DNA of 64,000 nt, taken from assembly GCA_963662265.2 (NCBI GenBank), contig CAXXHA010000010.1:160001-224000 (forward strand). The letters are read 5' to 3'. Positions 2,686 through 26,807 of the stretch are shown in pieces; positions within the stretch are counted from its first letter, which is position 1; each line of letters begins with the position of its first letter. The notes beneath the pieces are model-generated. The model ran no database searches, was not told the DNA's origin, and was given only the letters and a program-made list of their open reading frames with translations. Origin of the DNA: Spirochaetia bacterium (GTDB taxonomy: Bacteria; Spirochaetota; Spirochaetia; CADAEX01). The position numbers and the translations under genes are program-made.

Positions 2686-2707
2686 TTATCACGCAATACA
2701 GACAATT
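2686..2707 (+). repeat. 22-bp direct repeat, copy 1 (downstream of integrase)
   Basis: TTATCACGCAATACAGACAATT vs TTATCATGCAATACAGACAATT at 3619-3640 (21/22). Confidence 0.85.
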
Positions 2708-2742: not shown

Positions 2743-3543
2743 CTATAACGGGCTCTTCACCCTCTTTGATACAGGGTCTGCAAGGTTTATATAGATCATT
2801 GTTGTCTTGACCGATTTATGCCCCAGAAGATCCTTAACTGTCTTGATATCAATCCCGGCCTCTATCAGGTGCGTGGCGAAACAATGCCTGAGAGTATGGC
2901 AGGTTGCACTTTTCTGAATCAAACTCTTATTGAGAGCATTCTCGAATATTTTCTGGACCGTCCTTACAGAATATTTCTTCCCTGAAATTGTCCTGAAAAC
3001 ATAATCAGAAGCATTTCTCCCTGCAGTAAGCTGTCTTAAAGATTCTGAATACTTTTCCGAAAGAAGAGTAATCCTGTCCTTGTTCCCCTTGGAATCCCTT
3101 ATCTTAAGCGATAAGTCATTGAAATTAATATCCCTTATTTTTATTCTGCAGACCTCACTCACACGGAGACCGCTGCCGTAAAGAAGGGAGATAATAAGCT
3201 GATGCTTTTTGTTCTCAATATTTCCTAGAAGCTTAAGGACCTCCTCCCTTGAAAGAATATCGGGAAGCCTTTTCCTTGTTCTTACCCTGTCAAGCTTATA
3301 AGGACAGGGCTTGTCCAGTACAAGAGTATAAAACAGCTTTATCGCTGACCAGGCAAGCCTTCTCTGCTCACTCGAACTCTCTTCATTTTCAAGAAAAAGA
3401 GCAATCCTCCTTTCAGGATCAAAATCAGTTTTCCGGGAATATTCAAGAAAATGCTTCAGATGACCCGTATAAATCCTTACAGTATTTTTCGAATAATTCC
3501 GGTTCTTAAGCTCCCTTGTAAAATCTTCAAGATAATTTTTCAT
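2743..3543 (-). CDS. IntI-like tyrosine recombinase lacking the IntI-specific insertion (266 aa from the RBS-supported ATG)
   Basis: N-terminal RNYSKNTVRIY SAM-like domain; catalytic GLRVSE, SKGNKDR, HTLRH, LGH, TMIY; IntI-like C-terminal KSPL; only ~64 aa between catalytic K and HxxR. Confidence 0.92.
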   Translation of the reverse strand: MKNYLEDFTRELKNRNYSKNTVRIYTGHLKHFLEYSRKTDFDPERRIALFLENEESSSEQRRLAWSAIKLFYTLVLDKPCPYKLDRVRTRKRLPDILSREEVLKLLGNIENKKHQLIISLLYGSGLRVSEVCRIKIRDINFNDLSLKIRDSKGNKDRITLLSEKYSESLRQLTAGRNASDYVFRTISGKKYSVRTVQKIFENALNKSLIQKSATCHTLRHCFATHLIEAGIDIKTVKDLLGHKSVKTTMIYINLADPVSKRVKSPL

Positions 3544-3590
3544 GAAAAACGACCCCCTAGTATGTATAACAAGGGAAAAAGTAATTCTGC

Positions 3591-3619
3591 TTGAATTATA
3601 CACCCGCAGACTTTAAAAT
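3591..3619 (+). promoter_or_regulatory. Pc-like promoter facing the cassette array
   Basis: TTGAAT-17 bp-TAAAAT, ending ~25 bp before the first GTT; a divergent TATAAT (3595-3600, - strand) could serve the integrase. Confidence 0.55.
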
Positions 3620-3647
3620 TATCATGCAATACAGACAATTATAGTTA
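3619..3647 (+). other. Putative attI-like primary site: direct repeat copy 2, then ATA, then first GTTA (3644-3647)
   Basis: The first GTTA of the array is not preceded by a spacer hairpin; lies between the integrase start and cassette C0. Confidence 0.55.
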
Positions 3648-3866
3648 TCGTAAATGACAGGCCTTTGGAAATTTAGAAAGTCATTGATTCTTGACTTCTT
3701 TCTTCATGGCAAGGAACACAGCTGTATAAATTCAATTGTGAATTATGATGCTAATTATTGAAATATTAAGAATAGTTAAAATGCCGAGAATTAAATTTGA
3801 AGAAGCCATGAAGAAATTCTGACTTACATTGATTTGTAGATCTTGAAGCCTGTCACTCCCGATAAC
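3644..3866 (+). mobile_element. Cassette C0, no ORF of 60 aa or more
   Basis: Ends GTTATCGTAAATGACAGGC / GCCTGTCACTCCCGATAAC are inverted repeats (16/19); internal 12-bp IR at 3699-3710 / 3805-3816. Confidence 0.8.
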
Positions 3867-4026
3867 AGAGAATACCCGGTTCAGGCATAAGTAGTAAAAA
3901 GTATAGGGCTTAACTGCCGTTCACCCAAAATGTCGGAGCTTTTCTTGTTGCGTGTAAAATCTGGTAGGTATATGATTATTTTAATACGTGGAGAATCCGA
4001 CATCTTCGGATATTCTCAGAACGTTA
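3863..4026 (+). repeat. Spacer family A (attC-like), copy 1, 164 bp
   Basis: TAACAGAGAATACCCG...TGTCGGA...TCCGACA..CGGATATTCTCAGAACGTTA; homologous to 5035-5199 and 13663-13824. Confidence 0.9.
3948..3976 (+). promoter_or_regulatory. Putative sigma70 promoter inside spacer A copy 1
   Basis: TTGCGT-17-TATGAT; equivalent at 5121-5149 and 13746-13774. Confidence 0.55.
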
Positions 4027-4098
4027 AGTGCAATTCTTTGCTTAATATATTTTTTCCTCGCCATCCATGGCTCGGATTTAGAAAAGGAGTATTTCAAA

Positions 4099-4965
4099 AT
4101 GAAAAAAATTATTATTTATTGTTTAGCACTGTTTTTATTATTTTCATGTGCTAATAATGAATTTAATGTAGAACTTGGTATTGATGCAAACTTCATTGAG
4201 AATGATTTAAAAATTACAGGATCAACAAATCTTCCGGATGGTGCAATGATTTCATTAAATCTTAAACCACTATATGAAGAAGAAGTTTCTATTAAAGATG
4301 GAAAAATTGAACATACATTCTCTTTTAATGGAGATGCTATACCTGATGGAGATTATACACTAGAAGCAATATTTATTCCTACTCAAAACGAATCACCAAA
4401 ATTAAAAAATATGATTCTAATTGAAAATGAAAATGTATATGAAAAAGATGGAATAAAATATTATTATATCGGAAATAATTTTAATATAAACAAAGTAGTT
4501 AAAAATAAAGAGCTAAAAAATTTAATAAACAGAAAAGTTCCATATGAAAAATGGAATGATTGGGGAAATCCTGAAACTCTTGAACAAACTAACAATATTT
4601 TTTGGGCAGCATATCTCGAGAAAGCTGATATTTCTTTTATATCAAAAAAAGAGAATGATAAAATCATTTTTGCATGTAGAGGAAAAGAAAAACTAGAAAA
4701 ATATTTTACTGATCGTCAAAATAATATTGAAATTGGATTTTCTCTTTGGGATGGTTCGCATAAAAAACTTACAGAATTAATCAAACAAAGTATGAATGAC
4801 GCAAAAAGTTATGAACATGTTAAAACTGTTTACTGGGATAAAGGAGATCATTTAATAGTTAAAACAGATTTTAGGGGTGCAAATGTTTTTGGAGGTATCG
4901 TCTTAGATTCTGTTACTGCTAAGACATCTATTGATGGTGAGATCTTAGAAATAATTTCAGATTAA
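4099..4965 (+). CDS. Lipoprotein of unknown function (cassette C1, 4023-5038)
   Basis: AAGGAG RBS then MKKIIIYCLALFLLFSC signal and lipobox; the ORF-track start at 3988 lies inside the spacer. Confidence 0.8.
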   Translation: MKKIIIYCLALFLLFSCANNEFNVELGIDANFIENDLKITGSTNLPDGAMISLNLKPLYEEEVSIKDGKIEHTFSFNGDAIPDGDYTLEAIFIPTQNESPKLKNMILIENENVYEKDGIKYYYIGNNFNINKVVKNKELKNLINRKVPYEKWNDWGNPETLEQTNNIFWAAYLEKADISFISKKENDKIIFACRGKEKLEKYFTDRQNNIEIGFSLWDGSHKKLTELIKQSMNDAKSYEHVKTVYWDKGDHLIVKTDFRGANVFGGIVLDSVTAKTSIDGEILEIISD

Positions 4966-5034
4966 TTTTTTACTGCCAGAAAGTACATCCCTGTACTTTC
5001 TGGAATTTATTAAAATTCAGCAAAGAACAGCACT

Positions 5035-5199
5035 TAACAGAGAATACCACGGTTCAGGCTTAAGCAGTAGAAGCATGTAGCAAAACAGCCGTTCACCCAA
5101 AATGTCGGGACTTTTTATTGTTGCAGGTGGAATCTGTTGGGTATAAGATTAATTAAATATCTGGAGCATCCGACATCTTCGGGTATTCTCAGAACGTTA
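5035..5199 (+). repeat. Spacer family A, copy 2, 165 bp
   Basis: Same terminal IR and internal motifs as copy 1; TTGCAG-17-TAAGAT at 5121-5149. Confidence 0.9.
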
Positions 5200-5431
5200 T
5201 GTACAATGAGCCCGACAAGAGGAAGACGCCCGGACCTCCGGCCGACGGGCGAAGAGATAATATATATATGTTATATCGAAAGAAGGAGTAAAAATGAGAT
5301 TGAAGGCATTAATATTAGAGAACTTCCGAGGCTATTCTGGAGTAAATTTAATTAATTTTGAAAAAGACTGGAAATGGCAAGTCATTTTCCCCACATTTAG
5401 GAAATTAAAAATCCCCCACCTGCAGAAAAAA

Positions 5432-6172
5432 TTATACCCCCTTTTTCTCCTGAATTCTATATGAATCTCCCTCAAGGGAGAAAACATGCGCATGATGTAA
5501 AAGCCTATCAAGCATTGCTGTTGTCATGATTTCATCACCCATCATTTCAGACCACTGATCAAAACCTTTATTTGAAGTAATTATTACTGACGATCTTTCA
5601 TAGAGTTCGCTGATAAGATTAAAAAAAAGATTGGCCTCTTTTCTGTCGATAGGCGTATAGCCTATTTCATCAATAATTAGTAACGAAGATCTGAGAATCC
5701 TGTTTATTCTGAATGAACTTGATCTCATAGTTTCCATTGTTTTCAACAGTTTTATTAGTGAAGTTATCCTTTCAAAACAGACAGTGTATCCGGCTTCAAT
5801 TGCCTTGTACCCGAGAGCAATTGATAGATGTGTTTTCCCAAGGCCGGGAGGTCCAAAGAACATGATATTTTCAGATTTATCTATCCACCTGAAATCCTTG
5901 AGATTATTTAACTGTTCTTCAGTTATCCCTTTTATTCTTGAAAAATTGAATGTCTCAAGTTCCTTAATTACAGGAAAATGGGCACCTGTAAGATTTCTAT
6001 GAAGACGTCTTTCATTTCTGAAATGTACTTCTTCTGTAAGAAGGATGCTTAAAAAATCAAGATGAGATATTTTCTCCTTTGTTGCTTTTTCAAGTGCCTC
6101 ATCAAGATTAACAGATATTCCTTTAAGCTTTAGACTATCAAGTATTCCTGTACAGTAATCAAAACAGCTCAT
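5432..6172 (-). CDS. istB: IS21 helper ATPase
   Basis: GPPGLGKTHL Walker A, LLIIDEIGY, TSN, LDRLLHH, GDSYR. Confidence 0.95.
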   Translation of the reverse strand: MSCFDYCTGILDSLKLKGISVNLDEALEKATKEKISHLDFLSILLTEEVHFRNERRLHRNLTGAHFPVIKELETFNFSRIKGITEEQLNNLKDFRWIDKSENIMFFGPPGLGKTHLSIALGYKAIEAGYTVCFERITSLIKLLKTMETMRSSSFRINRILRSSLLIIDEIGYTPIDRKEANLFFNLISELYERSSVIITSNKGFDQWSEMMGDEIMTTAMLDRLLHHAHVFSLEGDSYRIQEKKGV

Positions 6173-7731
6173 AAAGCACCTCCTAAAAGACTTACAAGTG
6201 AGGTGTAGTAACTTAAATCCCTTTTCTTTACTTCTATGTTTTTATTCTCATGTTTTACAGCTTTTATTCCTGTAAGAAGCTGTGGCAGAATATCCGGATA
6301 ATTTTCAGTTTCACAGCTTCTTACATAAAGATAAGACTCTTCAAAATTCCTTGCAGATAGTGTTCCGTTTTCAATGCATAAATCTGCAGTTTTTGCTATT
6401 AACTTATCATCAGGATTTGAGTTTATGAAAGCATAAAGCTCGCGCTGCTGATCTCTGTAATACCTGCTGTATTTTTTGTAATTCTGATCAACATATTGTT
6501 TCCATGAGTTACTGCTAAATCTGTTCTTTAATTTTTTGATAACTTCATCGGGCTTGGAATCATAATTCCTGAAATGATTATGTTTGGTTATTTTTTTCCC
6601 CTTTATCGGTGAGATTTTGTGCCTGGCAATCTCTTCTCCATCTATTTTGTCATAGATAAAAAGGTCTGTATCTGTTTGGTAAATCCAGACAGTTTTTTTT
6701 CTGAACCTGTTAGGGACAGAGTAAAATGAAGATGAAACACTTATCAATGATTTACTATTTACTTCCCTTGATTCTTTATTTATGATGCTTTCCCTTCTGA
6801 AAATAGACGGCTTTAATTTTTTAAAATGTGGAATCTCTTTAAGCAAAGCTTCTTGAGGAATTATTCCAGTTGCCTGGCATATTTTACCGTTAGCTCTTCT
6901 TGAAAGCCAATTATTTAATGCCTCCTGTATTTGATCAAAGGATGTGAAATGTCTTGCTGAAAAGAAACTGCTTTTGATGAATTTCACAAAGTTTTCGACT
7001 TTACCTTTGCTCTCAGGGTCTGCTTTTCTGCAGACATACATCTTAAACCCCTGCTCATCCTTGAAGGCTTTAAATTCTTTTGTATACTTAATATCTCCGC
7101 TGTTTTCTTTAACAACCATGACTTTGTCCTGATCAATCACGATTTCTTCAGGTACCCCTCCTATTATTTCAAAGGTATCAAGTAAATGATTTATCACATC
7201 TATGGATTTAAACGGCCTCTTCTGTACTGCTGCATACTTGAATCTGCTTACAGATAGAATGACTCCAAAGATATATACTTTCTCACCGGTTTCTATTTCA
7301 GTTTCTCCGAAATCAAGCTGTAGTTGTTTTCCATGTGGAAGTTCTTCAACCGGTGTATAGATTCTCTTGTATTCGTAATTATCTACTTCTCCTGTTTTCT
7401 TTAAGAAAATGAGATAATTTCTCAAAGTCCTTTCAGTGCCGGGAAGTTCTCCATATTTTTCTTCAAGAACATCATAGATTGATGAAGTGTATATTTTATT
7501 GTTATTTAAATTAAAAATATTCAGTATTTCATCTTTGAAAGGAGCAAAAATCTTTTCCTTTTCTACACTGTTTATCTGGTATTCAAGATACTCTGCTTCC
7601 GACATTTCAAAGTATTTTCTAACTGTTTTTCTGTCGATTTTTAATTCTCTGGATATTTTCCTTTTTGAATATCCTCTATTCTTGAAAACTCTTATTTTTT
7701 GGTACATATTCATAGTAATCATTTGAGTCAT
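6169..7731 (-). CDS. istA: IS21 transposase
   Basis: N-terminal HTH (IDRKTVRKY), QLDFG, GGVPEEIVIDQ, SKGKVE. Confidence 0.95.
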   Translation of the reverse strand: MTQMITMNMYQKIRVFKNRGYSKRKISRELKIDRKTVRKYFEMSEAEYLEYQINSVEKEKIFAPFKDEILNIFNLNNNKIYTSSIYDVLEEKYGELPGTERTLRNYLIFLKKTGEVDNYEYKRIYTPVEELPHGKQLQLDFGETEIETGEKVYIFGVILSVSRFKYAAVQKRPFKSIDVINHLLDTFEIIGGVPEEIVIDQDKVMVVKENSGDIKYTKEFKAFKDEQGFKMYVCRKADPESKGKVENFVKFIKSSFFSARHFTSFDQIQEALNNWLSRRANGKICQATGIIPQEALLKEIPHFKKLKPSIFRRESIINKESREVNSKSLISVSSSFYSVPNRFRKKTVWIYQTDTDLFIYDKIDGEEIARHKISPIKGKKITKHNHFRNYDSKPDEVIKKLKNRFSSNSWKQYVDQNYKKYSRYYRDQQRELYAFINSNPDDKLIAKTADLCIENGTLSARNFEESYLYVRSCETENYPDILPQLLTGIKAVKHENKNIEVKKRDLSYYTSLVSLLGGAL

Positions 7732-9749
7732 TCCTGGTAGTTTTTGTCGTGATTACATACTAAGGTTTGACTCTTTTTTTTCCTATAGGGTGGGGAATTT
7801 TATTTTCCATCCTATGGGGATTTCATGTTACCATTTCCAAAGACCTAACATCTTTTATAGGAAAGAATGATAGTGGTAAGTCATCAATTCTTGAAGCTCT
7901 TGAGATATTTTTTAATAGTAAAGTTATTAAAATTGATGGTGATGATAAATTTGTACGTTCATTAGAAAATATTGTGAATATTGGTTGTGTTTTTACGGAT
8001 CTTCCAGAAAAAGTCATTATTGATGAAACTAATGAGACATCATTTATAGATGAATATCTTACAAATGAAAATGAGGATTTGGTTGTTTTAAAGAGATTTA
8101 AAATACAGAAAACTGCAAGTAAACCGGAAACATTTATAATAGCAAATCATCCTAGTAAAACTGGTTATGACGACTTACATAGTTTAAAAATCGGCGAATT
8201 AAAGAAGAGAGGAAAAGAATTAGGTATTAAAGATACCGTAGAAGATCAGAGAATTAGTGCTCATTGGAGAAAAGCGATTTGGTCTTCAACTGATAATTTG
8301 GAAATACAAAAATCTGAAATTGAAATTACACAATTAAGCACAGAATCAAAAAAATTATATACAAGAATAAGTGAAGCAATGCCAACATTTGCTCTTTTCC
8401 GATCAGATAGAGAAAGTAGTGACTCTGATCCCGAAGCGAAAGACCCTATGCAATTAGCAGTAAATGAAGCAAAAAAAACTTATGAAGCTCAAATTAATGA
8501 ATTACAAGAGAAAATAGAAAAAAGTGTTTTCGAGGTTGCAGAAAGAACGCTAGAAAAAATGAATGAAATGGATCCTTCTTTAGCTAATGAATTGAACCCA
8601 AGATTAAAAGAAACACCAAAATGGAGTTTTAGTTTTACAATTGATGGTGATGAAAATATTCCAATTAATAAGAGAGGTAGTGGGGTCAGGAGACTTGTTC
8701 TTTTAAATTTCTTTAGAGCAGAAGCTGAAAGAAAGAAAATTCAAAATCATTCTCCTGATGTAATATATGCAATTGAAGAACCTGAAACATCTCAGCATCC
8801 GAATTATCAGCAATTATTGATTGATTCATTGATAGCATTATCACAAAATGATAATTGTCAGGTTTTATTAACAACACATGTTCCAGCATTGGCAGAAAGA
8901 TTAGAAATTAACTCTATTAGATTTATTGAGAAAATCGGATTAGGTGAAATTAAAGTTCATATGCATAATGATTATGTTTTAGAATTAGCTACAGAAAGTT
9001 TAGGGATAATGCCTGAAAAAGAAATATCTTTAGCCAATAAAGTTATATTAGTTGAAGGTCATAGTGATATAACATTTTTGAATAAAATTAGTGAAGAATA
9101 TAAGAATGCGGGAGAAATAACGTCAACATTAAGTGATTCAAAAATATATCCAATACCTATTGGTGGATGCGGGAATCTTAAACATTGGATAACCAAACGC
9201 ATAATAGATAAAATGGGAATAGAATATTTTATTTTAATGGATTCAGATTTAGGAGATCCAGTAAATAATTCTAGAAACATTACTAAAATAAATGAAATTA
9301 ATACAAATGGTCAAATCGGATATTTAACAAATAAACGAGAACCTGAGAACTATATTGATCCAGATTTATTGAAAACAAAGTATGATAAAGATATTAGATA
9401 CACTAACACTTGTGATGCGAAAAAAATAATTGGAAAAGAATTAACAATTAGACCAAATGATGTTCTTGAGTTTATATGGCCACATATGGAATATCAGCAT
9501 ATGAAAAAAATGGCGAAATATGGTGATAAAGATGAATTCAAAGAGTGGATGGATGCGTTCTTAGAATAATGATAATATGAATATTCTAGCTAAGAAGATT
9601 ATAATGGTGAAGAATCCAAACCTCTGAAATAAAGACAAATAGAGAATGTAATTACTTTTTACAAATAGTATTGCTGACGATATTTTTAAGAATAGCTTAA
9701 ATATCTGGTAGAATACGTTCAATAACAATTAAATAAATGGTATAATTTT

Positions 9750-11546
9750 ATGATGGAAACGAGTCTTTCAGTTCTTATTGAAGATTTATCAGTCTCAGCA
9801 AAGAAATATGAAAATGAATATAACGATGATGAGATGCTTACATTTGCTATTTCATTTTGTCAGAGATTAATATCAACATATTGGCAGATTAATATCTCTG
9901 ATACAAAATATTCAATTACTCCGTATAATTCTGAGCTATATGGATATCTGAAAGGGCAACCAATAATTATTGCTGATCAAATCGCACAGTTATTATCTGC
10001 AATGCCAAATAAGGATGCTGGTTTCTTTATTGGAAATATTTATACATCATTACTTCCGAAGAATGTCAGGTCAAAAAACGGCGCTTATTACACACCTCCA
10101 ATACTCGTACAAAGATTATTAACATCTATTGATAACTATAGATTTGATTGGATTAATAGTAAAATATTGGATCCTTCATGTGGTGGAGCTGCATTTCTTA
10201 CAAGTATATCCAGATTTATTATTGAAAAATATAAACATGAATTATCAGCAGATGATTTATTTTCCTTTATTGAAAAAAACATACAAGGGTATGAAATTGA
10301 TCCTTTTGCAGCATGGATCTCACAAACATTGTTGGAATTTGAATTATATGATCTATATCTCAAAGTAAATAAAAGAATAAAAAAAATCATTTCTGTAACT
10401 AATTCCCTTGAGGAAAATTACGACAAGAATTTTGACCTTATCATAGGAAATCCCCCTTATGGAAAAGTAACAATTGAAAAAAACTTAAGAGAGAAATTCA
10501 GTAATAGCGTATATGGACATGCCAATCTTTATGGATTATTTACAGATTTAGCATTAAATCTTTTAAATGAAAATGGATATATAGCCTATGTTACTCCAAC
10601 TTCGTTTTTGGGTGGAAATTATTTTAAGAATTTAAGAAAACTTTTAGGAGAAAATTCTCCTTTAGTTTCTATTGATTTCATAAAAGATAGAAGTGGCGTT
10701 TTTAGTGATGTTCTTCAAGAAACAGCACTAGCAATATATAAAAAATCAAAATTTGTAAAAAAAGTTGAAATATCTGAATTATCAACTACAAAAAATCTTG
10801 ATTCCTTATCAATTATAAAAATTGGAAGTTTGCTAGTTAATCAAAATACAGAAAAACCCTGGCTTATTCCAAGAGAAAAAGATCAATTATCGTTATATAA
10901 GAATATTTCTTCCTTCGAGTATACTTTACGGGACTATGGATTTAAGGTCCGTACTGGACAACTTGTATGGAACAGACACAAGGAACAATTATCAAGTTCA
11001 AAAAGAAACTCTTATCCTTTAATATGGGCCGAATCCATATTAAGAAATGGAAATTTTGAATTTAAATATACAAAGAAGAATCATTTCCCATACTTTAAAT
11101 TGGAAAGAAAACAAAATTATTTACTCACAAATAAAGAATGTATTATATTACAGCGAACAACATCTAAAGAACAAAGTAGAAGATTAATATCTTCAATACT
11201 TCCAAATGAATTTATTAGTCAATATGGTGGTGTAGTTATTGAAAACCATATTAATATTATAGAACAGAATGAAGAAACAGTTTTAGATTTAGTTACACTT
11301 AATATCTTGTTAAATTCAATAGCAATAGATAGAATTTTTCGTTGTATTAATGGCAGTGTAGCCGTTTCTGCTTATGAGTTAAATTCAATACCATTTCCAT
11401 CCCCAGAAAAGATTTTGAATCTAAAAAAATTCTTAATTAAAAATGATAAACGAAGCTCAATAGAAGAATATATTCTAGATATTTATGGAGGCAATATTGA
11501 TGAGTCAACTTCCTACAGTTCAATCGATACAAGACAAACTGGATAA
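9750..11546 (+). CDS. N6-adenine DNA methyltransferase (Eco57I/BsuBI-PstI-like)
   Basis: GAYYTP, ILDPSCGGAAFL, IIGNPPY. Confidence 0.9.
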   Translation: MMETSLSVLIEDLSVSAKKYENEYNDDEMLTFAISFCQRLISTYWQINISDTKYSITPYNSELYGYLKGQPIIIADQIAQLLSAMPNKDAGFFIGNIYTSLLPKNVRSKNGAYYTPPILVQRLLTSIDNYRFDWINSKILDPSCGGAAFLTSISRFIIEKYKHELSADDLFSFIEKNIQGYEIDPFAAWISQTLLEFELYDLYLKVNKRIKKIISVTNSLEENYDKNFDLIIGNPPYGKVTIEKNLREKFSNSVYGHANLYGLFTDLALNLLNENGYIAYVTPTSFLGGNYFKNLRKLLGENSPLVSIDFIKDRSGVFSDVLQETALAIYKKSKFVKKVEISELSTTKNLDSLSIIKIGSLLVNQNTEKPWLIPREKDQLSLYKNISSFEYTLRDYGFKVRTGQLVWNRHKEQLSSSKRNSYPLIWAESILRNGNFEFKYTKKNHFPYFKLERKQNYLLTNKECIILQRTTSKEQSRRLISSILPNEFISQYGGVVIENHINIIEQNEETVLDLVTLNILLNSIAIDRIFRCINGSVAVSAYELNSIPFPSPEKILNLKKFLIKNDKRSSIEEYILDIYGGNIDESTSYSSIDTRQTG

Positions 11547-12582
11547 AATATTTCCTCAGGGTTTAGAAAACAGAGGTTATTTGACTCGAGAAATGGCTGC
11601 CAAGACAATATTTGTTATGATTTATTCAACAGCAGTTGAAGGAACAGATATTTGGATTAGACCTGATCAAATTACAAAAATGACTGATAAGCAAGCAGCC
11701 ATTACCGATATTGATAAAAGAGAAGAATGGTATGAAATGACACTTCGTCCTGGAGCTATGAAGGATATTAAAGATCGATGGTATGCTGCAAATACAAGAG
11801 AACCTATTAGAGATGAAACATTAAGATACGGTCTGATAGTGTATAATGCGGTAATAGAGCGCGCAGGTTTACCTACAACATCTTCAAAACCAAGATATGC
11901 TCTACAACGGGAATTCTATGAATTATTTATGGTTGACGAAAATGCAGATGATTTTATTAAAAATTGGCAAGATAAATATTTATCTGCTGAATCATTAGCT
12001 CGGGTAAAATTATTAGGTCAATCAAAACAATCAAAAACTAATAATGAAAATATTTTGATTGATCTGCCAGATGGTCAGAGAAGAAAAATGCTTCCTGGAC
12101 CAAGTTCATTTCTTACAAAAGCAACTGTAGAATTATTCTGTAAATCTTTTTTAAAAAATCCCGTTGTAATTTTCATTAGTGAATCAGGGAATAAAGTAGT
12201 ACTTAAAGATGATGAATTAGCAAAATCAATTGGATTTAATATTCCAGCGGAAAAAAGTTTACCAGATCTGATAATCGCTGATCTTACTGATGACAATACG
12301 CTAATATATTTTATTGAAATAGTTGCAACAGACGGCCCAATTAACAGAAAAAGAAAAGATGATTTGCTGAAAATTGTAGCTGAATCTTCATTTAAAAGAG
12401 AGAATGTATTTTTTATGACGGTATTTGAAGATAGGAATTCAGCACCCTTTAAGAAAAATATATCTTCGATAGCACCAAATACACTTATTTGGTTTGCCTC
12501 AGAACCTGAATTTATAATGATCTGGAATTCTTTAAAAAATTATAAAATTGCAGATATGTCTAGTTTCATAAATGAAACATAA
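11500..12582 (+). CDS. BsuBI/PstI-family type II restriction endonuclease
   Basis: YAANTREPIRDETLR, PTTSSKP.Y, PD...IEIVATDGP, WFASEP; GGAGG RBS at 11487. Confidence 0.88.
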   Translation: MSQLPTVQSIQDKLDKIFPQGLENRGYLTREMAAKTIFVMIYSTAVEGTDIWIRPDQITKMTDKQAAITDIDKREEWYEMTLRPGAMKDIKDRWYAANTREPIRDETLRYGLIVYNAVIERAGLPTTSSKPRYALQREFYELFMVDENADDFIKNWQDKYLSAESLARVKLLGQSKQSKTNNENILIDLPDGQRRKMLPGPSSFLTKATVELFCKSFLKNPVVIFISESGNKVVLKDDELAKSIGFNIPAEKSLPDLIIADLTDDNTLIYFIEIVATDGPINRKRKDDLLKIVAESSFKRENVFFMTVFEDRNSAPFKKNISSIAPNTLIWFASEPEFIMIWNSLKNYKIADMSSFINET

Positions 12583-12680
12583 AAAATAGTTTCAGTAGTC
12601 TTGGCTATTTTTTTTAAAGTATAAATGAAGAATCCAGACCTAACTCCGTTGAACGGTCTGGATGTCGGGCTCAAAGCACA

Positions 12681-12756
12681 TAACAGCGAATATGCGGTTT
12701 CGCTTCGCTTTACCCAAACTGGCCTTTGGCCAGCTTCGCATATTCGCGGAACGTTA
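12681..12756 (+). repeat. Spacer family B (short attC-like, 76 bp)
   Basis: TAACAGCGAATATGCG...CGCATATTCGCGGAACGTTA; homologous to 17086-17163. Confidence 0.88.
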
Positions 12757-12834
12757 TGAATAATTCCTGACCAAGAAGAGACCTTTATACTCGCCATCCA
12801 TGGCTCGTGAAGAAATAGAAAATCTTATATTGTA

Positions 12835-13549: not shown

Positions 13550-13662
13550 GAGTTGAAAATACAAATATTCTAACCTTTAGTTATACTTTTACCTTTTACT
13601 GTCTCAAAAGGACTTCCATGTCCTTTTGAGAATGAAATATCTTAATGGTCAGGAACTATACA

Positions 13663-13824
13663 TAACAGAGAATACCCGGTTCAGGCATAAGCAGTAAAAG
13701 TTCGGGGCTTAACAGCCTTTCACCCAAAATGTCGGAACTTTCTTGTTGCAGGTGGAAACTGGAGGGTATATGATTAATCAAATATCTGAGGCATCCGACA
13801 TCTTCGGGTATTCTCAAAACGTTA
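13663..13824 (+). repeat. Spacer family A, copy 3, 162 bp
   Basis: Homologous to copies 1 and 2; TTGCAG-17-TATGAT at 13746-13774. Confidence 0.9.
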
Positions 13825-13881
13825 TGTTCAATTTTTGGTCTAAAATATGTTTAAAAGGTAATTATCCAATAAGGAATCATT

Positions 13882-14550: not shown

Positions 14551-14650
14551 GATACAACCAGATGAGACCAAAAACTGAACATAACAGCGAATATGGCATT
14601 CCCCCAAAACTGTAGACACTTGATATACTTAGAAACTAAGGAGTATTAAA

Positions 14651-14938
14651 GTGCCAAAGAGTCCCTACACAGAAGAATTTAAAGACGAAATATTAAAGCA
14701 AATAATGGAAGAAGAACACAGTGTTCTTGAAGTATCAAAAGCAACAGGAATAAGTGACGTTACTCTTTATAACTGGCTTAGAAAGGCCGGGTGGAAATCC
14801 GGGGAGTCTCGAGAAAAGAAAAAATTAACAGAAGCAGAAAAGGAAAACAGAGAATTAAAAGCAGAGATCAGAAAGCTTAAGATGGAGCGTGATATCTTAA
14901 AAAAGGCCGCAGCGTACTTTGCGAAGGAGTCCCAGTAA
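14651..14938 (+). CDS. IS3 OrfA
   Basis: YTEEFK, HTH, ERDILKKAAAYFA; A-AAA-AAG shift site at 14899-14905. Confidence 0.9.
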   Translation: MPKSPYTEEFKDEILKQIMEEEHSVLEVSKATGISDVTLYNWLRKAGWKSGESREKKKLTEAEKENRELKAEIRKLKMERDILKKAAAYFAKESQ

Positions 14939-14985
14939 AGTACGCTTTTATTCGGGACAACAGAAAAGCGTTTCCAATTCGCCCT

Positions 14986-15795
14986 ATGTGCAGGATATTA
15001 AAAGTTAATCCATCAGGATTTTATCGGTGGTTAAAAACACCAGAATCTCCTAGAACAATAGAAAATAAAAAAGTGACAGAACTAATCCGTTTTTACTGGG
15101 AAGAAAGCGGTCAAGTATATGGAAGTCCAAATATACATGAGGATCTAAAAGAAGCAGGTTATAGCTACGGTGTTAATCGGGTTGCTCGTTTGATGAGAGT
15201 AGCTGGAATAAAAGGTGCTTACAGACGGAAACGGCATCATGTACCTTGGGTTCCTGGAGAAATTTACCAGAAGAATACTTTGAATAGAGAATTTTCTGTT
15301 GCTGAGCCAAATCAAGCTTGGTGTACTGATATAACATATATCCGAACTTATGAAGGCTGGTTATATCTGGCAGTAGTAATTGATCTATTTAACAGAGGAG
15401 TTGTTGGCTGGTCGATGAAGAATCATCAGAAAGCAATTATTGTTATGGATGCTTTGTTTATGGCAGTAAAAAGAAGAAGACCTACAAAGTCTGTTCTTAT
15501 CCATTCTGATCAAGGGTGTCAGTTTACAAGTAAGGATTGGGAGGATTTTTGTGAGGCCCACTCTTTGGAAATTAGCATGAGTAGAAGAGGTAATTGTTGG
15601 GATAATTCTGTAGTTGAATCATTCTTTTCAAATCTTAAAAGAGAAAGAATCAGGAATAAAATTTATAAAACCAGAGAGGAGGCAAGAAAAGATATTTTTA
15701 ATTATATTGAAATGTTTTACAATACAAAAAGACGGCATGGTCATTTAGGAAAGCGAAGCCCTGCTGATTTTGAAGATAAGTTTTCATCAGATTAA
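14986..15795 (+). CDS. IS3 OrfB (DDE transposase, probably fused to OrfA by -1 frameshift)
   Basis: WCTDITY, HSDQGCQF, GNCWDNSVVESFF. Confidence 0.92.
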   Translation: MCRILKVNPSGFYRWLKTPESPRTIENKKVTELIRFYWEESGQVYGSPNIHEDLKEAGYSYGVNRVARLMRVAGIKGAYRRKRHHVPWVPGEIYQKNTLNREFSVAEPNQAWCTDITYIRTYEGWLYLAVVIDLFNRGVVGWSMKNHQKAIIVMDALFMAVKRRRPTKSVLIHSDQGCQFTSKDWEDFCEAHSLEISMSRRGNCWDNSVVESFFSNLKRERIRNKIYKTREEARKDIFNYIEMFYNTKRRHGHLGKRSPADFEDKFSSD

Positions 15796-15822
15796 AGTGT
15801 CTACAGAATCAGGGGAATGCCA

Positions 15823-16345: not shown

Positions 16346-16423
16346 TGAAAATGTGAAGCCAAAAATATCCATGTATTTGGCAGAGGATATAATCAATAAT
16401 TTCTAAAAACAAAAACTGGGTTA

Positions 16424-16499
16424 CAACAAGAAATATACGATTCTGCTTCACTCCAACCAAATACGGAGTTGCCACACTTCGCATATTCCTGAAACGTTA
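16424..16499 (+). repeat. Degenerate family B spacer
   Basis: CAACAAGAAATATACG...CGCATATTCCTGAAACGTTA. Confidence 0.75.
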
Positions 16500-16526
16500 C
16501 AGGCAACTACATTCTGAGGAGACTTA

Positions 16527-17078: not shown

Positions 17079-17085
17079 CTTCCTA

Positions 17086-17163
17086 TAACAGCGCATGTGC
17101 GGTGCTGCATTCGGCTTTACGCAAATTGGCCTTTGACCAACATCGCATATTCGCAATACGTTG
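17086..17163 (+). repeat. Family B spacer
   Basis: TAACAGCGCATGTGCG...TTGGCCTTTGACCAACATCGCATATTCGCAATACGTTG. Confidence 0.85.
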
Positions 17164-17289
17164 TACATCATATCAAAATATTATCGTCATTAGCGGCGAT
17201 TAAAGGCAAAAAAGATTTTAAAGAGAAAGGCGATGTTTTTGAAGTAAAAGACATTTCCTGGATAGAAAATATCAGAGGAAAAATATTAT

Positions 17290-17879: not shown

Positions 17880-18074
17880 ATGAGAATTGAAAATGTCAGC
17901 AAAAAAGACTATTCACAGTTAATTGAAATATGGGAAACTTCTGTACGTTCAACTCATGATTTCCTGACTGAAAAGGATATTATATCGTTAAGATCTTTAA
18001 TAATTGATAAATATTTTCCTGCTGTTGACCAACTTCCCATATTCGTGAAACGTTATAAGCAATTAATAAATTGA
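17880..18074 (+). pseudogene. 3'-truncated GNAT (YjaB-like) fused to the right half of a spacer
   Basis: IWETSVRSTHDFL N-terminus runs into GTTGACCAACTTCCCATATTCGTGAAACGTTA. Confidence 0.75.
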
Positions 18075-18590: not shown

Positions 18591-18616
18591 TACTCCCAAG
18601 TACTACTGACTGTTCA

Positions 18617-18703
18617 TAACAGGGGCTATTTACTCCGCCAAGTCGGGCTTCGTGCTGCACCATTTTTGGCCTAAGCCAAACATCACATAACCCAAGAACG
18701 TTA
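18617..18703 (+). repeat. Degenerate spacer
   Basis: TAACAGGGGCTAT...ATAACCCAAGAACGTTA followed by TTGGC-AAT. Confidence 0.75.
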
Positions 18704-18741
18704 TTGGCAATATCCCTTAAGATCAACATGTGAGGAAGATA

Positions 18742-19647: not shown

Positions 19648-19668
19648 CGGAGACCGGGAGACTATCAA

Positions 19669-19745
19669 GAACAGTGAATATGTGGTTCAGCATTCAGCAT
19701 CTCCCAAAATGCCGTTGACCAACATCGCATATTTACAAAACATTA
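19669..19745 (+). repeat. Degenerate family B spacer (GAAC...ATTA)
   Basis: GAACAGTGAATATGTG...GTTGACCAACATCGCATATTTACAAAACATTA. Confidence 0.75.
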
Positions 19746-19786
19746 TAGTTAATTTTGAATTAAGATTTTAATCAAGGAGTTTTCAT

Positions 19787-20218: not shown

Positions 20219-20246
20219 TAAGCAAACACTTAATTTAAACTTTCAA

Positions 20247-20330
20247 GAACAGACAATATATGATCCGCCCAGCTACGGGCTCGCCAAATCCATTACTTAG
20301 TGCTAGACTTCATATATTTCTTAAACGTTA
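20247..20330 (+). repeat. Degenerate spacer
   Basis: GAACAGACAATATATGA...TCATATATTTCTTAAACGTTA. Confidence 0.7.
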
Positions 20331-20361
20331 TATCTAATTATATTTTGTAAAGAGAACATAA

Positions 20362-20883
20362 ATGAAACATATAGAAATAAAAGAAATTACTGAAATAGAC
20401 ATCCCTGAAATTGTAGACATTTGGTATGAAGTTTCTCTTCAAGCTCATGGATTTATTTCCAGCGAATATTGGAGAGCGAACAAAGATCAAATGAGTAATA
20501 AATACATACCAATGTCTGAAACATTTCAAGCAACAGATGGTGAAAATATATTAGGATTTATCTCATTATTAGATGATTATCTTGCTGCAATTTTTGTAAA
20601 ATCTGAATTCCAGGGAAGAGGAATTGGATCTTTATTATTAAACCATGCAATGAGTCTTCGCAATAATCTGCAATTAAAAGTATTCTGCAAAAATGCAAAG
20701 AGTATAGAATACTATAAATCAAAAGGTTTTTCTGTAATTTCAGAATCAAAAGATAATGAGACAGGAGAAAATGAGCTTGTCATGAAGTGGCATAAAAAAA
20801 AACTAGACGTAACAAGAAATATGCACAGCCCTACAGGCTTGGCCTTCGCAAATGCAGCGTTGCTTCTCTTTGCATATTTCTGA
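20362..20883 (+). CDS. GNAT acetyltransferase (YiaC-like), C-terminus reads through the next spacer
   Basis: AHGFI...YW, FV..EFQGRGIG; the last ~25 aa are encoded by spacer 20810-20890. Confidence 0.82.
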   Translation: MKHIEIKEITEIDIPEIVDIWYEVSLQAHGFISSEYWRANKDQMSNKYIPMSETFQATDGENILGFISLLDDYLAAIFVKSEFQGRGIGSLLLNHAMSLRNNLQLKVFCKNAKSIEYYKSKGFSVISESKDNETGENELVMKWHKKKLDVTRNMHSPTGLAFANAALLLFAYF

Positions 20884-20890
20884 AACGTTT
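20810..20890 (+). repeat. Degenerate spacer
   Basis: TAACAAGAAATATGCA...TGCATATTTCTGAAACGTTT then GGCGC-AAT. Confidence 0.75.
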
Positions 20891-21014
20891 GGCGCAATTT
20901 GTCCCCCAAGAAAAACATTGCCCGGACATCCAGCCAACAGACTAAAATAACACTTCATGATGTGGTAATTAAATTAGCTGGTGAAAAAAACCATTTTTTA
21001 TGAGAAAATAGTTT

Positions 21015-21521: not shown

Positions 21522-21633
21522 GCAACTAGGGTGCTCGATAAACTTAATGTTTTTATAAAGAAGTTTGTTGATCCAGAGATTTAGAATCCAGACCGAACTC
21601 TGTTTAATATTCTGAATGTTGAACCAAAGCATA

Positions 21634-21742
21634 TAAGAGGGGCTATGTCGCATTGCTATAAGCTCACTGGCCTGAGGCATATGGCCTATGTCAAAATTTC
21701 TGCGCAGTAACTCCGGGAACTTAGCATATTCTTGAACCGTTA
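21634..21742 (+). repeat. Highly degenerate spacer
   Basis: TAAGAGGGGCTATG...GCATATTCTTGAACCGTTA. Confidence 0.6.
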
Positions 21743-21785
21743 AATACATTACAATTTGTTTAATAACACCTTAAAGAGGACAATA

Positions 21786-22463: not shown

Positions 22464-22820
22464 ATACAGCCAAAAGAATTAGTAAAATTATGGGTAGATG
22501 CTTTTAATGATGGAGATGCAACAAGAATATCCGATTTCTATGCAGAAAATGCTGTTAACCACCAGGTAGCTAATGAACCAGTTGAAGGAAAATCTGCAAT
22601 AACTGATATGTTTAAACAGGAATTTTCTGCTGCAAAAATGGTTTGTGTAGTTGAAAATATTTTTCAAGATGGAGATTGGGCAATTCTTGAATGGAAAGAT
22701 CCTTTAGGATTACGGGGCTGCGGCTTTTTTCATATCTTAAATGATAAAATAATTTTTCAGAGAGGTTATTGGGATAAACTCAGTTTTTTAAAAGCACATA
22801 ACTTGCCAATTCCAGAATAG
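22464..22820 (+). CDS. SnoaL/NTF2-like protein; start codon appears mutated to ATA (possible pseudogene)
   Basis: The open frame upstream of the 22608 ATG reads QPKELVKLWVDAFN.GD...FYAENAVNHQV; followed by ACT-N5-TAAC at 22824-22835. Confidence 0.7.
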   Translation: MQPKELVKLWVDAFNDGDATRISDFYAENAVNHQVANEPVEGKSAITDMFKQEFSAAKMVCVVENIFQDGDWAILEWKDPLGLRGCGFFHILNDKIIFQRGYWDKLSFLKAHNLPIPE

Positions 22821-23044
22821 AAAACTTCTCTTAACAGCAAATATGCACTTCATCATTCAGCTTCTCTTAAAAACAGCAATTTGCCGGCTTTGCAGTAAAT
22901 ATAGCATTCCAACTAAAACTTTATATAATAAAATTTAAAATAAGAAGGAAACACTGTGGCCTAGAGGAAATAAGAGAGATTTACAGGCAAAAGCTGTTTG
23001 CTCAAATGTTTTTTTACAAGTATTATTGAAAAAAGGAAAAAGTA

Positions 23045-24743: not shown

Positions 24744-24796
24744 CAACAACAAAATAATTCCATGTTTTTTATTTAAAAAGGAGTGTTGGTTAATAA

Positions 24797-24934
24797 ATGC
24801 TTGAATGGAAAGATCCTTTAGGATTACGGGGCTGCGGCTTTTTCCATATCTTAAATGATAAAATAATTTTTCAGAGAGGTTATTGGGATAAGCTCAGTTT
24901 TTTAAAAGTACATAATTTGCCGATCCCAGAATAG
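24797..24934 (+). pseudogene. Duplicated 3' fragment of the SnoaL-like gene
   Basis: 24800-24934 matches 22686-22820 with about 6 mismatches. Confidence 0.85.
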
Positions 24935-25057
24935 TTTTTTTTCAACAAATATGCAGTTCAGCTTTTCGCTTCACCTGAACTGGATGTTGGTAAATAAGCA
25001 TTTATGAGAAACATTGGGTATAATAAAAAACTTTGACGGAGGATTTAGGAGGTAAGA

Positions 25058-25898: not shown

Positions 25899-26807
25899 AT
25901 GTATGAAAAGAAAATATATTTTATTCAGGATTATATCTGCACTCACCTGGATAAAAATTTAAGTCTTGAAAAACTGGCCCGGATTGCAGCCTTCTCCCCC
26001 TTCCATTTTCATAGAATATTTAAGGAAATTACAGGAGAAAATCTCTATGATTTTATTCAAAGAAAAAGACTGGAAAACGCATGTACAATGCTATCTTCAA
26101 ATCTTGATATGAAAATTATTGATATTGCCCTGTACAACGGATTCTCAACCCCTTCCTCATTCTCAAAAGCATTTAAAAACCACCTAAAAGTAAGTCCATC
26201 TGAATACCGCAGACTTAATTCCATAAAAAACAGCAAGAATGGAACATATAACAGCAATCCGGACAAAGATTCATTTTTTACTGATGAGTATATTACAGAC
26301 AATGATTTAGCAGATTTATACACATGGAGGGAAAAAATGAATGTAAAGATAGAAGAACTGCCGGAATACCGTATCGCTTATATGCGGCAGATAGGACCTT
26401 ATGGATCCTCAAATATTCAGTTGATGCAGAAACTGAAGAAATGGGCAATTACAAGAGGCCTTCTTACTGAATCATCAGTAATACTCGGAATAGCTCATGA
26501 TGACCCAGGCATTACACCGGCAGAGAAATGCCGCTATGATACCTGTTTAGTAATTTCAGATGACTATGAGCTGGAAAACAGGGTATGTGAAAGCAGACTC
26601 CCGGGAGGAAAATACGGGATTATTAGAGCTGAACATTCTGCTGAAGCAATTAAAAAAGCATGGAAAGATATCTTCACTTCCTGGTTACCGGAAAGCGGTT
26701 ACCAAATTGATGACAGGCCTGTCTTTGAAAGGTATACAGGTGCTGCAATTGACATAACAATTGAGCCTGTTACCTGTGAGATTTGCATACCCTTAAAACC
26801 TGAATAG
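25899..26807 (+). CDS. AraC regulator with GyrI-like effector domain
   Basis: FSPFHFHRIF HTH; C-terminal GPYG...WLPESGY. Confidence 0.9.
   Translation: MYEKKIYFIQDYICTHLDKNLSLEKLARIAAFSPFHFHRIFKEITGENLYDFIQRKRLENACTMLSSNLDMKIIDIALYNGFSTPSSFSKAFKNHLKVSPSEYRRLNSIKNSKNGTYNSNPDKDSFFTDEYITDNDLADLYTWREKMNVKIEELPEYRIAYMRQIGPYGSSNIQLMQKLKKWAITRGLLTESSVILGIAHDDPGITPAEKCRYDTCLVISDDYELENRVCESRLPGGKYGIIRAEHSAEAIKKAWKDIFTSWLPESGYQIDDRPVFERYTGAAIDITIEPVTCEICIPLKPE

Follow-up and report, generated by a model that had tools for sequence, protein, structure and literature searches.

A cassette array headed by an integron-like tyrosine recombinase without the IntI-specific insertion in a Spirochaetia genome

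In a canonical integron, the integrase gene (intI) lies divergent from an array of promoterless small genes with imperfect palindromes, the attC sites. According to Bouvier et al. (2009), extrahelical bases, an unpaired central spacer and a variable terminal structure are 'common to all known' attC substrates, with the extrahelical bases on the R''–L'' arm, and Escudero et al. (2016) describe an I2 domain of the integrase that accommodates these bases. Ghaly et al. (2022) and the IntegronFinder 2.0 paper give this extra domain as the defining mark of IntI; in these accounts it is treated as both defining and necessary, and it also serves as a filter for recognising integrons in genomes. Here we analyse a 64,000-nucleotide (nt) stretch of a Spirochaetia bacterium genome (contig CAXXHA010000010.1, positions 160,001–224,000; hereafter the window), in which the open reading frame (ORF) of a tyrosine recombinase without this segment stands at the head of a cassette array whose hairpins have no extrahelical bases.

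Close homologues of IntI without the insertion are already published. Smyshlyaev et al. (10.1101/542381) describe an 'Integron-like' subgroup, with the insertion 'specific to IntI only' and absent from the homologues in IS91 and IS3 insertion sequence (IS) elements. The window protein falls in that assemblage, but the described members belong to IS91 and IS3 elements, whereas the window protein has no transposase partner and heads an array. On the folded CTX-phage site, the Xer-type enzymes XerCD, which have no I2-like domain, act on a hairpin that mimics duplex DNA and whose stem has no extrahelical bases (Escudero et al. 2016); unlike the window locus, that system joins host XerCD to a phage genome and has neither a cassette array nor a dedicated integrase. 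For spirochaetes, the described case is that of the Treponema integrons (Wu et al. 2013), whose intI measures about 1.2 kb and whose attC sites show a protruding G. Cury et al. (2016) report that 50 of 18,808 non-IntI recombinases co-localise with attC sites. Our literature search found no description of arrays headed by insertion-less integrases; Figures S1 and S5 of Cury et al. (2016), which concern these 50 recombinases and lay outside that search, may bear on the matter.

We read the ORF as probably encoding the site-specific recombinase resident in an integron-type platform that is sedentary, chromosomal and without an I2 domain. This reading, to which we assign a probability of about 0.6, rests on covariation within the sites, on synteny and on the specificity of a site model. 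We hold with similar confidence that the integrase of such a platform would never have had the I2 segment and that its hairpins would need none. A protein without the I2 segment, together with sites without extrahelical bases, makes a pair that departs from the canonical one in matching features.

An integrase without the I2 segment

Read from its ATG, the start position in 24 of 24 aligned relatives, the window integrase has 266 residues; an alternative GTG at 3603 would add 20. It matches PF00589 (Phage_integrase) at E = 4e-40 and, at its N-terminus, Phage_int_SAM_4 at E = 1.1e-5, under the Pfam cut-off, and its active site is complete (R127, K152, H216, R219, H242 and Y251). The initial annotation had claimed that about 64 residues separate the catalytic Lys from HxxR, that an LP.AL.RKYP...W.W-like segment is missing and that the terminal SPL is IntI-like, and all of this holds. 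From K152 (SKGNKDR) to H216 (HTLRH) there are 64 residues, as against 106 in IntI1 and 103–106 in 20 other canonical IntI; the spacing is 62–68 in 47 other insertion-less relatives, 68 in XerC and 72 in XerD. An alignment of the window protein with 4 other short forms, plasmid IntI1, 3 other canonical IntI and E. coli XerC and XerD (alignment A4) has a 42-column gap common to the window protein and the 4 short forms, in columns that IntI1 and the 3 other canonical IntI fill with '..LP.AL..KYP.A...W.W..'. The annotation had named an alignment showing the insertion as the outcome that would speak against it; in A4 the insertion is absent. At the C-terminus, SPL lines up with SPL(D) in canonical IntI, and XerC and XerD do not have it.

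Comparison with known structures locates the same difference. The phmmer match to VchIntIA (2a3v) is split in two, residues 11–182 aligning with 12–188 and residues 195–266 with 246–317, so that about 45 residues of VchIntIA (189–245) have no counterpart in the window protein. The best sequence match in the PDB is archaeal XerA of P. abyssi (4a8e, 138 bits), with VchIntIA next; this XerA aligns in a single stretch, as does that of T. acidophilum (5hxy, 117 bits). The AlphaFold model of the window protein, with a mean predicted local distance difference test score of 86.8, has no extra helix at the place of the insertion, where residues 174–192 form only a short strand and loop between helices 163–173 and 193–207. 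Its best fold match is still VchIntIA (2a3v, E = 1.3e-18), with XerA second. Identity is 34% to IntI1 and 31–38% to canonical IntI. What sets the window protein apart from canonical IntI is the absence of the approximately 42-residue segment that holds the I2 helix, the IntI-specific domain near patch III.

The likeness to archaeal XerA extends to the length class and to the best NCBIfam model, XerA_Arch (NF040815), which the window protein matches at 206.5 bits, below the family cut-off of 220. The integron integrase model TIGR02249 gives 205.4 bits in two stretches, below its cut-off of 265, and NF011946 gives 140 bits, below its cut-off of 435. XerA resolves chromosome dimers at dif, and we know of no linkage of XerA to cassette arrays.

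The short form is widespread. A word-indexed protein search gave 7785 relatives among 8000 candidates scored; among the matches listed, 118 of 120 relatives have at most 279 residues, and the named ones are from spirochaetes; P0029, of Spirochaeta isovalerica, is 65% identical to the window protein. The 24 aligned relatives, down to 45% identity, all have 265–276 residues, with the six catalytic residues and the terminal SPL invariant. Cluster representatives, searched exhaustively, gave 1775 clusters at E ≤ 1e-30, and 142 of the best 150 representatives match in a single stretch. Taken with the conserved short length, this indicates that the short form is the conserved state of a large group and no one-off deletion. 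We also scanned genomes, taking the best 80 of 574 confirmed stretches (583 matched), which include neither the window's own genome nor its relatives of at least 64% identity; these loci, given L numbers below, fall into two spacing classes, short forms at 62–68 and canonical IntI at 103–106.

The tree was built from 75 hand-picked rows and 282 of 913 alignment columns and rooted on E. coli XerC and XerD. Besides these two, the tree samples the aligned relatives (6 of 24), the scanned loci (37 of 80; 16 short and 21 long, selected as fully covered) and the cluster representatives (28 of 150), and adds IntI1 and the IS91-linked protein of L082; the Lys-to-His spacing is unreadable in 5 rows. 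Canonical IntI form one clade of 22 insertion-bearing rows (support 100/100, branch 0.90). The window protein lies outside it, in a 12-row clade (99/96) with the integrases of L001 and L002. Together, the bacterial insertion-less forms are a weakly supported sister of IntI (78/58), and two archaeal short forms branch below both. A 100/99 branch parts XerC and XerD from the other 73 rows, which groups the window protein with IntI and its insertion-less homologues, and the insertion state changes once on the whole tree. The annotation had proposed a sister or ancestral lineage between Xer-type enzymes and IntI: the tree bears out a position outside and below IntI and stops short of an exclusive sister relation or direct ancestry.

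On this tree it is very improbable that the window protein is a degenerate IntI that lost its insertion secondarily and is now inactive. Such an origin would fit the identity to IntI1, the common terminal SPL and the IS insertions in the array, but it is opposed by the placement outside the canonical clade with a single change of insertion state, by the conservation of short length and all six catalytic residues among the 24 relatives, and by the preponderance of single-stretch matches among the best representatives. We attach equally little weight to the idea that the ORF belongs, as its recombinase, to a transposable element of IS91 or similar type lying beside the array by chance. An IS91 transposase does lie directly 3' of the short integrase in L020, L025, L030, L060, L061 and L082, and IS91 and IS3 recombinases are placed with IntI by Smyshlyaev et al. 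(10.1101/542381). However, IS91-linked short forms (L082, L020, L025 and L030) form a clade of their own (98/99), tblastn with the L082 transposase has no match in the window, L001, L002, L003 or L007, and the gene downstream of the window integrase encodes a cupin. The array-linked short integrases fall in three separate short clades, those of the window, L003 and L007.

Other architectures occur among the relatives. In L025, direct repeats of about 335 nt (9202–9540 and 11915–12250) bracket the short integrase and the IS91 transposase and may mark the ends of an element. Bacteroidota proteins of about 580 residues form a further short clade on the tree. In Bacteroidota loci L006, L011 and L014, the short integrase makes up the C-terminal half of a longer ORF (about 545–595 residues), and L012, L013, L015, L016 and L018 are of the same type as judged by ORF length; the first approximately 300 residues of these long ORFs match no Pfam family, and no arrays were seen nearby. 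Among the closest cluster representatives (proteins P0133–P0269), many have 340–480 residues, with N-terminal extensions of about 70–230 residues before an insertion-less core. P0201 (324 residues) matches in two stretches and groups with the short forms near L007, and may hold an insertion of its own. PF22823 is precomputed on many of the listed relatives and is not among the Pfam scan results for the window protein.

Hairpin sites and the genomes that carry them

As in canonical integrons, the window recombinase is divergent from an array, here of about 21 kb, of promoterless small genes with imperfect palindromes. Direct-repeat finding and motif listing both bring up '...ATATTCnnnnAACGTTAY...' recurring at gene ends. 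Ten full and five partial or decayed attC-like hairpins were located (Table 1), beginning 5–25 nt past ORF stops or overlapping them, with the ORFs co-oriented. Seven aligned sites of 82–93 nt share one order: R'' (nnnTAAC), a single A, a 12-nt L'', a variable loop, L', a spacer and R' (GTTAnnn). In sites of this type, short and long, the 5' arm has a 1-nt spacer and the 3' arm one of 4–5 nt, ending in AC, and the variable loop spans 34–120 nt.

Covariation supports the hairpin. In the 7 window sites, 81% of cells are paired, against 74.5 ± 1.9% after shuffling and at most 45% with a slid partner. In 15 sites from 4 genomes, the L helix is 91.7% paired, falling to at most 39.5% when the partner is slid by 1–3 columns; 9 of its 12 pairs have changes on both sides, and compensatory cells number 45 against 15.7 ± 3.0. 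The L''/L' stem is therefore kept by structure rather than by sequence, as in attC sites. The AAC/GTT boxes are also those of attC, the innermost R pairs A–T, A–T and C–G being standard in 15, 13 and 13 of the 15 sites. The 5' spacer is A in all 15, and C precedes GTT in 14, the counterpart of the bottom-strand G that Bouvier et al. (2009) describe as conserved after AAC.

With canonical attC sites, window-type sites thus have in common the boxes, the L stem, the variable loop and, as far as their sequences suggest, a crossover at the R' box. They differ in the unpaired bases. None of the 15 sites has an insertion within the 12-bp L helix, where canonical sites have 2–3 extrahelical bases on the R''–L'' arm, and the surplus of 4 nt in their spacers lies on the L'–R' arm, beside the R box. 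The unpaired region between R and L measures 1 versus 4–5 nt in window-type sites and 4 versus 7 nt in those of L003; in two canonical cases, the blaBEL-1 attC and the L075 sites, it measures 5 versus 6–7 nt, with two unpaired L'' bases, as read by eye. The annotation's proposal that the integrase reads a different hairpin would hold at the level of comparison: the sites are without extrahelical bases, and they co-occur with short, not canonical, integrases.

This co-occurrence emerges from a covariance model, R1, trained on the 7 window sites only. In the window, R1 regains its training sites and weak decayed ones. Elsewhere it matches at E < 0.01 in 3 of 21 short-form loci, L002 (three matches), L007 (three) and L001 (one), in every case upstream of the integrase and on the opposite strand, which is the arrangement of the window. 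In 60 other loci (737,619 nt), every canonical IntI locus included, there are no R1 matches at E ≤ 1, and some of these canonical loci carry 18–29 repeat positions. The three carriers are metagenome-assembled genomes (MAGs) of Spirochaetes (L001), Spirochaetaceae (L002) and Peribacteria (L007), whose integrases are 53%, 40% and 37% identical to that of the window.

Site types unlike those of R1 were read by eye. The case in point is L003, a Firmicutes MAG with an integrase 39% identical to that of the window and, upstream of it, five repeats of about 270 nt spaced about 1 kb apart; their boxes read GCCTAAC/GTTAGGC, and their 10-bp L stem is perfect. In all four arrays the ORFs are directed away from the integrase, and the cargo, of a kind typical for cassettes, includes ParE, methyltransferases, a deaminase, NUDIX and many unknowns. 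Repeats just 3' of the integrases in L005 and L017 were judged not to be arrays. In L004, L005 and L008, the 5' ends of the integrase genes lie about 40–220 nt from a contig end; assemblies often break at repeat arrays, which we offer for these three loci only as a thought.

L002 carries a further signature. A cassette start of about 160 nt has three copies there, one adjoining the integrase and two behind hairpins, with the similarity beginning at the GAT of R'. A shared start at R' in all three copies is the pattern expected from attI × attC insertion at R', and it would be indirect evidence of attI × attC or attC × attC recombination by the short enzyme. The element itself (78–238, 1184–1344 and 4888–5048, minus strand), each time right after the R' position, is GC-rich and strongly self-complementary; it may be an ORF-less cassette, a structured RNA or a piece of a composite site.

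By analogy with that junction, we place a candidate attI between the window integrase and its array, so that the integrase adjoins a putative attI and an attC-type array with sites of a variant type. The candidate holds a decayed R''-A-L'' (GTATAAC-A-...), an R'-like ATTATCA followed by GCAAT, and then ATA-GTTATCG. It overlaps one copy of a 22-nt direct repeat, the other lying just beyond the integrase stop. The copies are 21/22 identical (blastn E = 2.5e-4), can be extended to about 40 nt and both begin in an R'-like heptamer followed by GCAAT, the pattern with which cassettes of the array start; the decayed R''-A-L'' stands before the upstream copy. These repeats could be an attC-derived attI, or could mean that the integrase gene was once mobile as a unit. 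In L002, a perfect repeat of 15 nt is similarly placed. The sequence AGTTATCG, common to the regions upstream of the window and L001 integrases, where 22 of 33 flanking positions agree, is a weak lead because an 8-mer common to two regions of about 350 nt is expected by chance.

Weighing a resident recombinase against an orphan array

Under the IntegronFinder definition (PF00589 plus intI_Cterm), the window array would probably count as a CALIN, in which attC sites cluster without an integron-integrase. It might be one in fact, made or moved by a canonical IntI that is encoded elsewhere or lost, while the short recombinase does something else, such as XerA-like dimer resolution or mobility of its own small element. 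The XerA matches in NCBIfam (206.5 bits, cut-off 220) and the PDB would suit the former role, and the 22-nt repeat, which flanks the integrase gene as if it were a separate unit, the latter; the decay of the distal sites also fits. We nevertheless regard this explanation, the main alternative, as rather unlikely. As opposed to a CALIN, a related recombinase stands divergently at the head of the array in 5 genomes of 3 phyla. Site type tracks integrase type, R1 having no match beside canonical IntI, and the sites are without exactly the feature that canonical IntI uses. The cassette junction of L002 is right next to the short integrase. Moreover, when IntI1, a second IntI and XerD are used as tblastn queries, no further tyrosine recombinase comes up, either in the 64-kb window or in the flanks of L001, L002, L003 and L007, and none is present among the 71 window ORFs of at least 90 residues.

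Several points weigh against a resident recombinase, in addition to the IS91 linkage of some short forms described above. Cury et al. (2016) report four recombinases intermediate between IntI and Xer, each with fewer than 3 attC sites, which in their words 'are not IntI', and for their cases concluded in favour of CALINs. By our own reading, arrays occur in 4 of the 15 short-form loci with at least 3 kb of upstream flank, the window's own clade was examined in three genomes only (window, L001 and L002), and carriers total five genomes, the window included. The window array is partly decayed in its distal sites and broken by two IS elements. The 15-site alignment was fitted to the model and so leans towards structure. 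Folding energy by itself is weak: for the 7 window sites as bottom-strand DNA, z is −5.58, −2.27 and −1.73 in three and +0.39 to −0.77 in the other four. Of the 10 sites folded, 6 have the two-helix hairpin as their minimum-energy structure.

If the resident recombinase is the right reading, the enzyme would recombine the sites at the C|GTT junction of R'. Its partners would be a hairpin, as folded single strand or cruciform, and the attI adjoining the integrase gene, and by analogy the reaction would resemble that of IntI, or that of XerCD on the folded CTX-phage site. With no extrahelical bases in the stem and no I2 in the enzyme, the stem would mimic duplex DNA, and strand and orientation would instead be set by the 4-nt bulge next to the R box. 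An insertion-less integrase and bulge-less hairpins, if they prove a conserved pair, would widen the definition of the integron and change the reading of many 'orphan' cassette arrays. They would also offer a simpler enzyme–site pair for strand choice without extrahelical bases, and the origin of single-strand hairpin recombination from Xer-type duplex recombination would become testable.

More tentatively, cassette capture at folded attC-type sites may predate I2, with 'I2-less integrons' present in Spirochaetota, Bacillota and candidate-phyla bacteria. Were this so, current finders would overlook such platforms or class them as CALINs, an explanation would be at hand for some cassette arrays of phyla in which integrons are held to be absent, and the missing intermediate between Xer-type enzymes and IntI would be supplied.

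Contents of the window array

The genes of the array include several GNATs, an isochorismatase, EamA, DUF1697, a flavodoxin and NUDIX, together with a RelE/HTH pair on the opposite strand. This content is typical of integrons. A large cassette (5203–12759) carries a defence-like module of an OLD-family ATPase, an Eco57I-type methylase and a BsuBI/PstI-type endonuclease; an IS21-family insertion splits its ATPase gene into the first approximately 46 codons (5294–5431) and the remainder (7767–9569). The sequence past the IS3-family element is an unrelated ORF's 3' end, which means that the insertion was accompanied by a deletion or rearrangement.

Table 1 Coordinates of the integrase, its flanking elements and the sites of the array in the window
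Feature	Position	Strand	Details
Direct repeat, copy A	2686–2707	+	22 nt; just beyond integrase stop; begins within R'-like GTTATCA...GCAAT
Integrase ORF	2743–3543	−	266-residue tyrosine recombinase, integron-like group, without IntI-specific insertion
Candidate attI region	3567–3650	+	By analogy with attI-side junction of L002
Direct repeat, copy B	3619–3640	+	22 nt; 76–97 nt upstream of integrase ATG
Cassette array	3860–25019 (end approximate)	+	Small accessory genes, each followed by attC-like hairpin; interrupted by IS21 and IS3
attC-like site 1, long class	3860–4029	+	170 nt; from hairpin pattern scan; same ends as site 13660–13827
attC-like site 2, long class	5032–5202	+	Read by eye; same ends as site 13660–13827
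IS21-family istB/istA	5432–7731	−	Inside OLD-family ATPase gene of third cassette
attC-like site, short class	12678–12759	+	84.4 bits
attC-like site, long class	13660–13827	+	168 nt; 41.5 bits; outside R1 training set; joint search
R''-A-L'' half-site	14577–14593	+	Cut by IS3 insertion
IS3-family element	14594–15822	+	Terminal inverted repeats; inside attC-like site
attC-like site, short class	16421–16502	+	
attC-like site, short class	17083–17166	+	
Partial site (L'-R' half)	17998–18058	+	Behind GNAT gene fragment; weak, 16.1 bits, E = 0.51
attC-like site, short class	18614–18706	+	
attC-like site, short class	19666–19748	+	R' has ATT, not GTT
attC-like site, short class	20244–20333	+	
attC-like site, short class	20807–20893	+	Overlaps stop codon of upstream GNAT ORF
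Decayed site	21618–21745	+	10.1 bits, E = 9.7
Decayed site	22829–22920	+	R''-A-L'' half recognisable; 3' arm not
Decayed site	24940–25019	+	17.6 bits, E = 0.25

Two simpler scans were set aside as ways of finding sites. A strict RYYYAAC...GTTRRRY scan has a single match, at 3908–4029, and the array sites deviate from that consensus. A hairpin pattern scan was noisy, with 221 matches against 78 in shuffled sequence, and served only for the site at 3860–4029 and for spacer lengths. To the left of the integrase, the intervals 1290–1460 and 1960–2345 hold no clear site, and in the window as a whole there are no matches to Rfam families and no tRNA or tmRNA by ARAGORN.

At the distal end of the array, a 139-nt duplication (22682–22820 and 24796–24934, 95% identical) comprises the 3' ends of two ORFs, each just before a decayed site. 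Just beyond the last decayed site, an ORF at 25899–26807 encodes an AraC-type regulator with a GyrI-like/Cass2 domain ('integron-associated effector binding protein').

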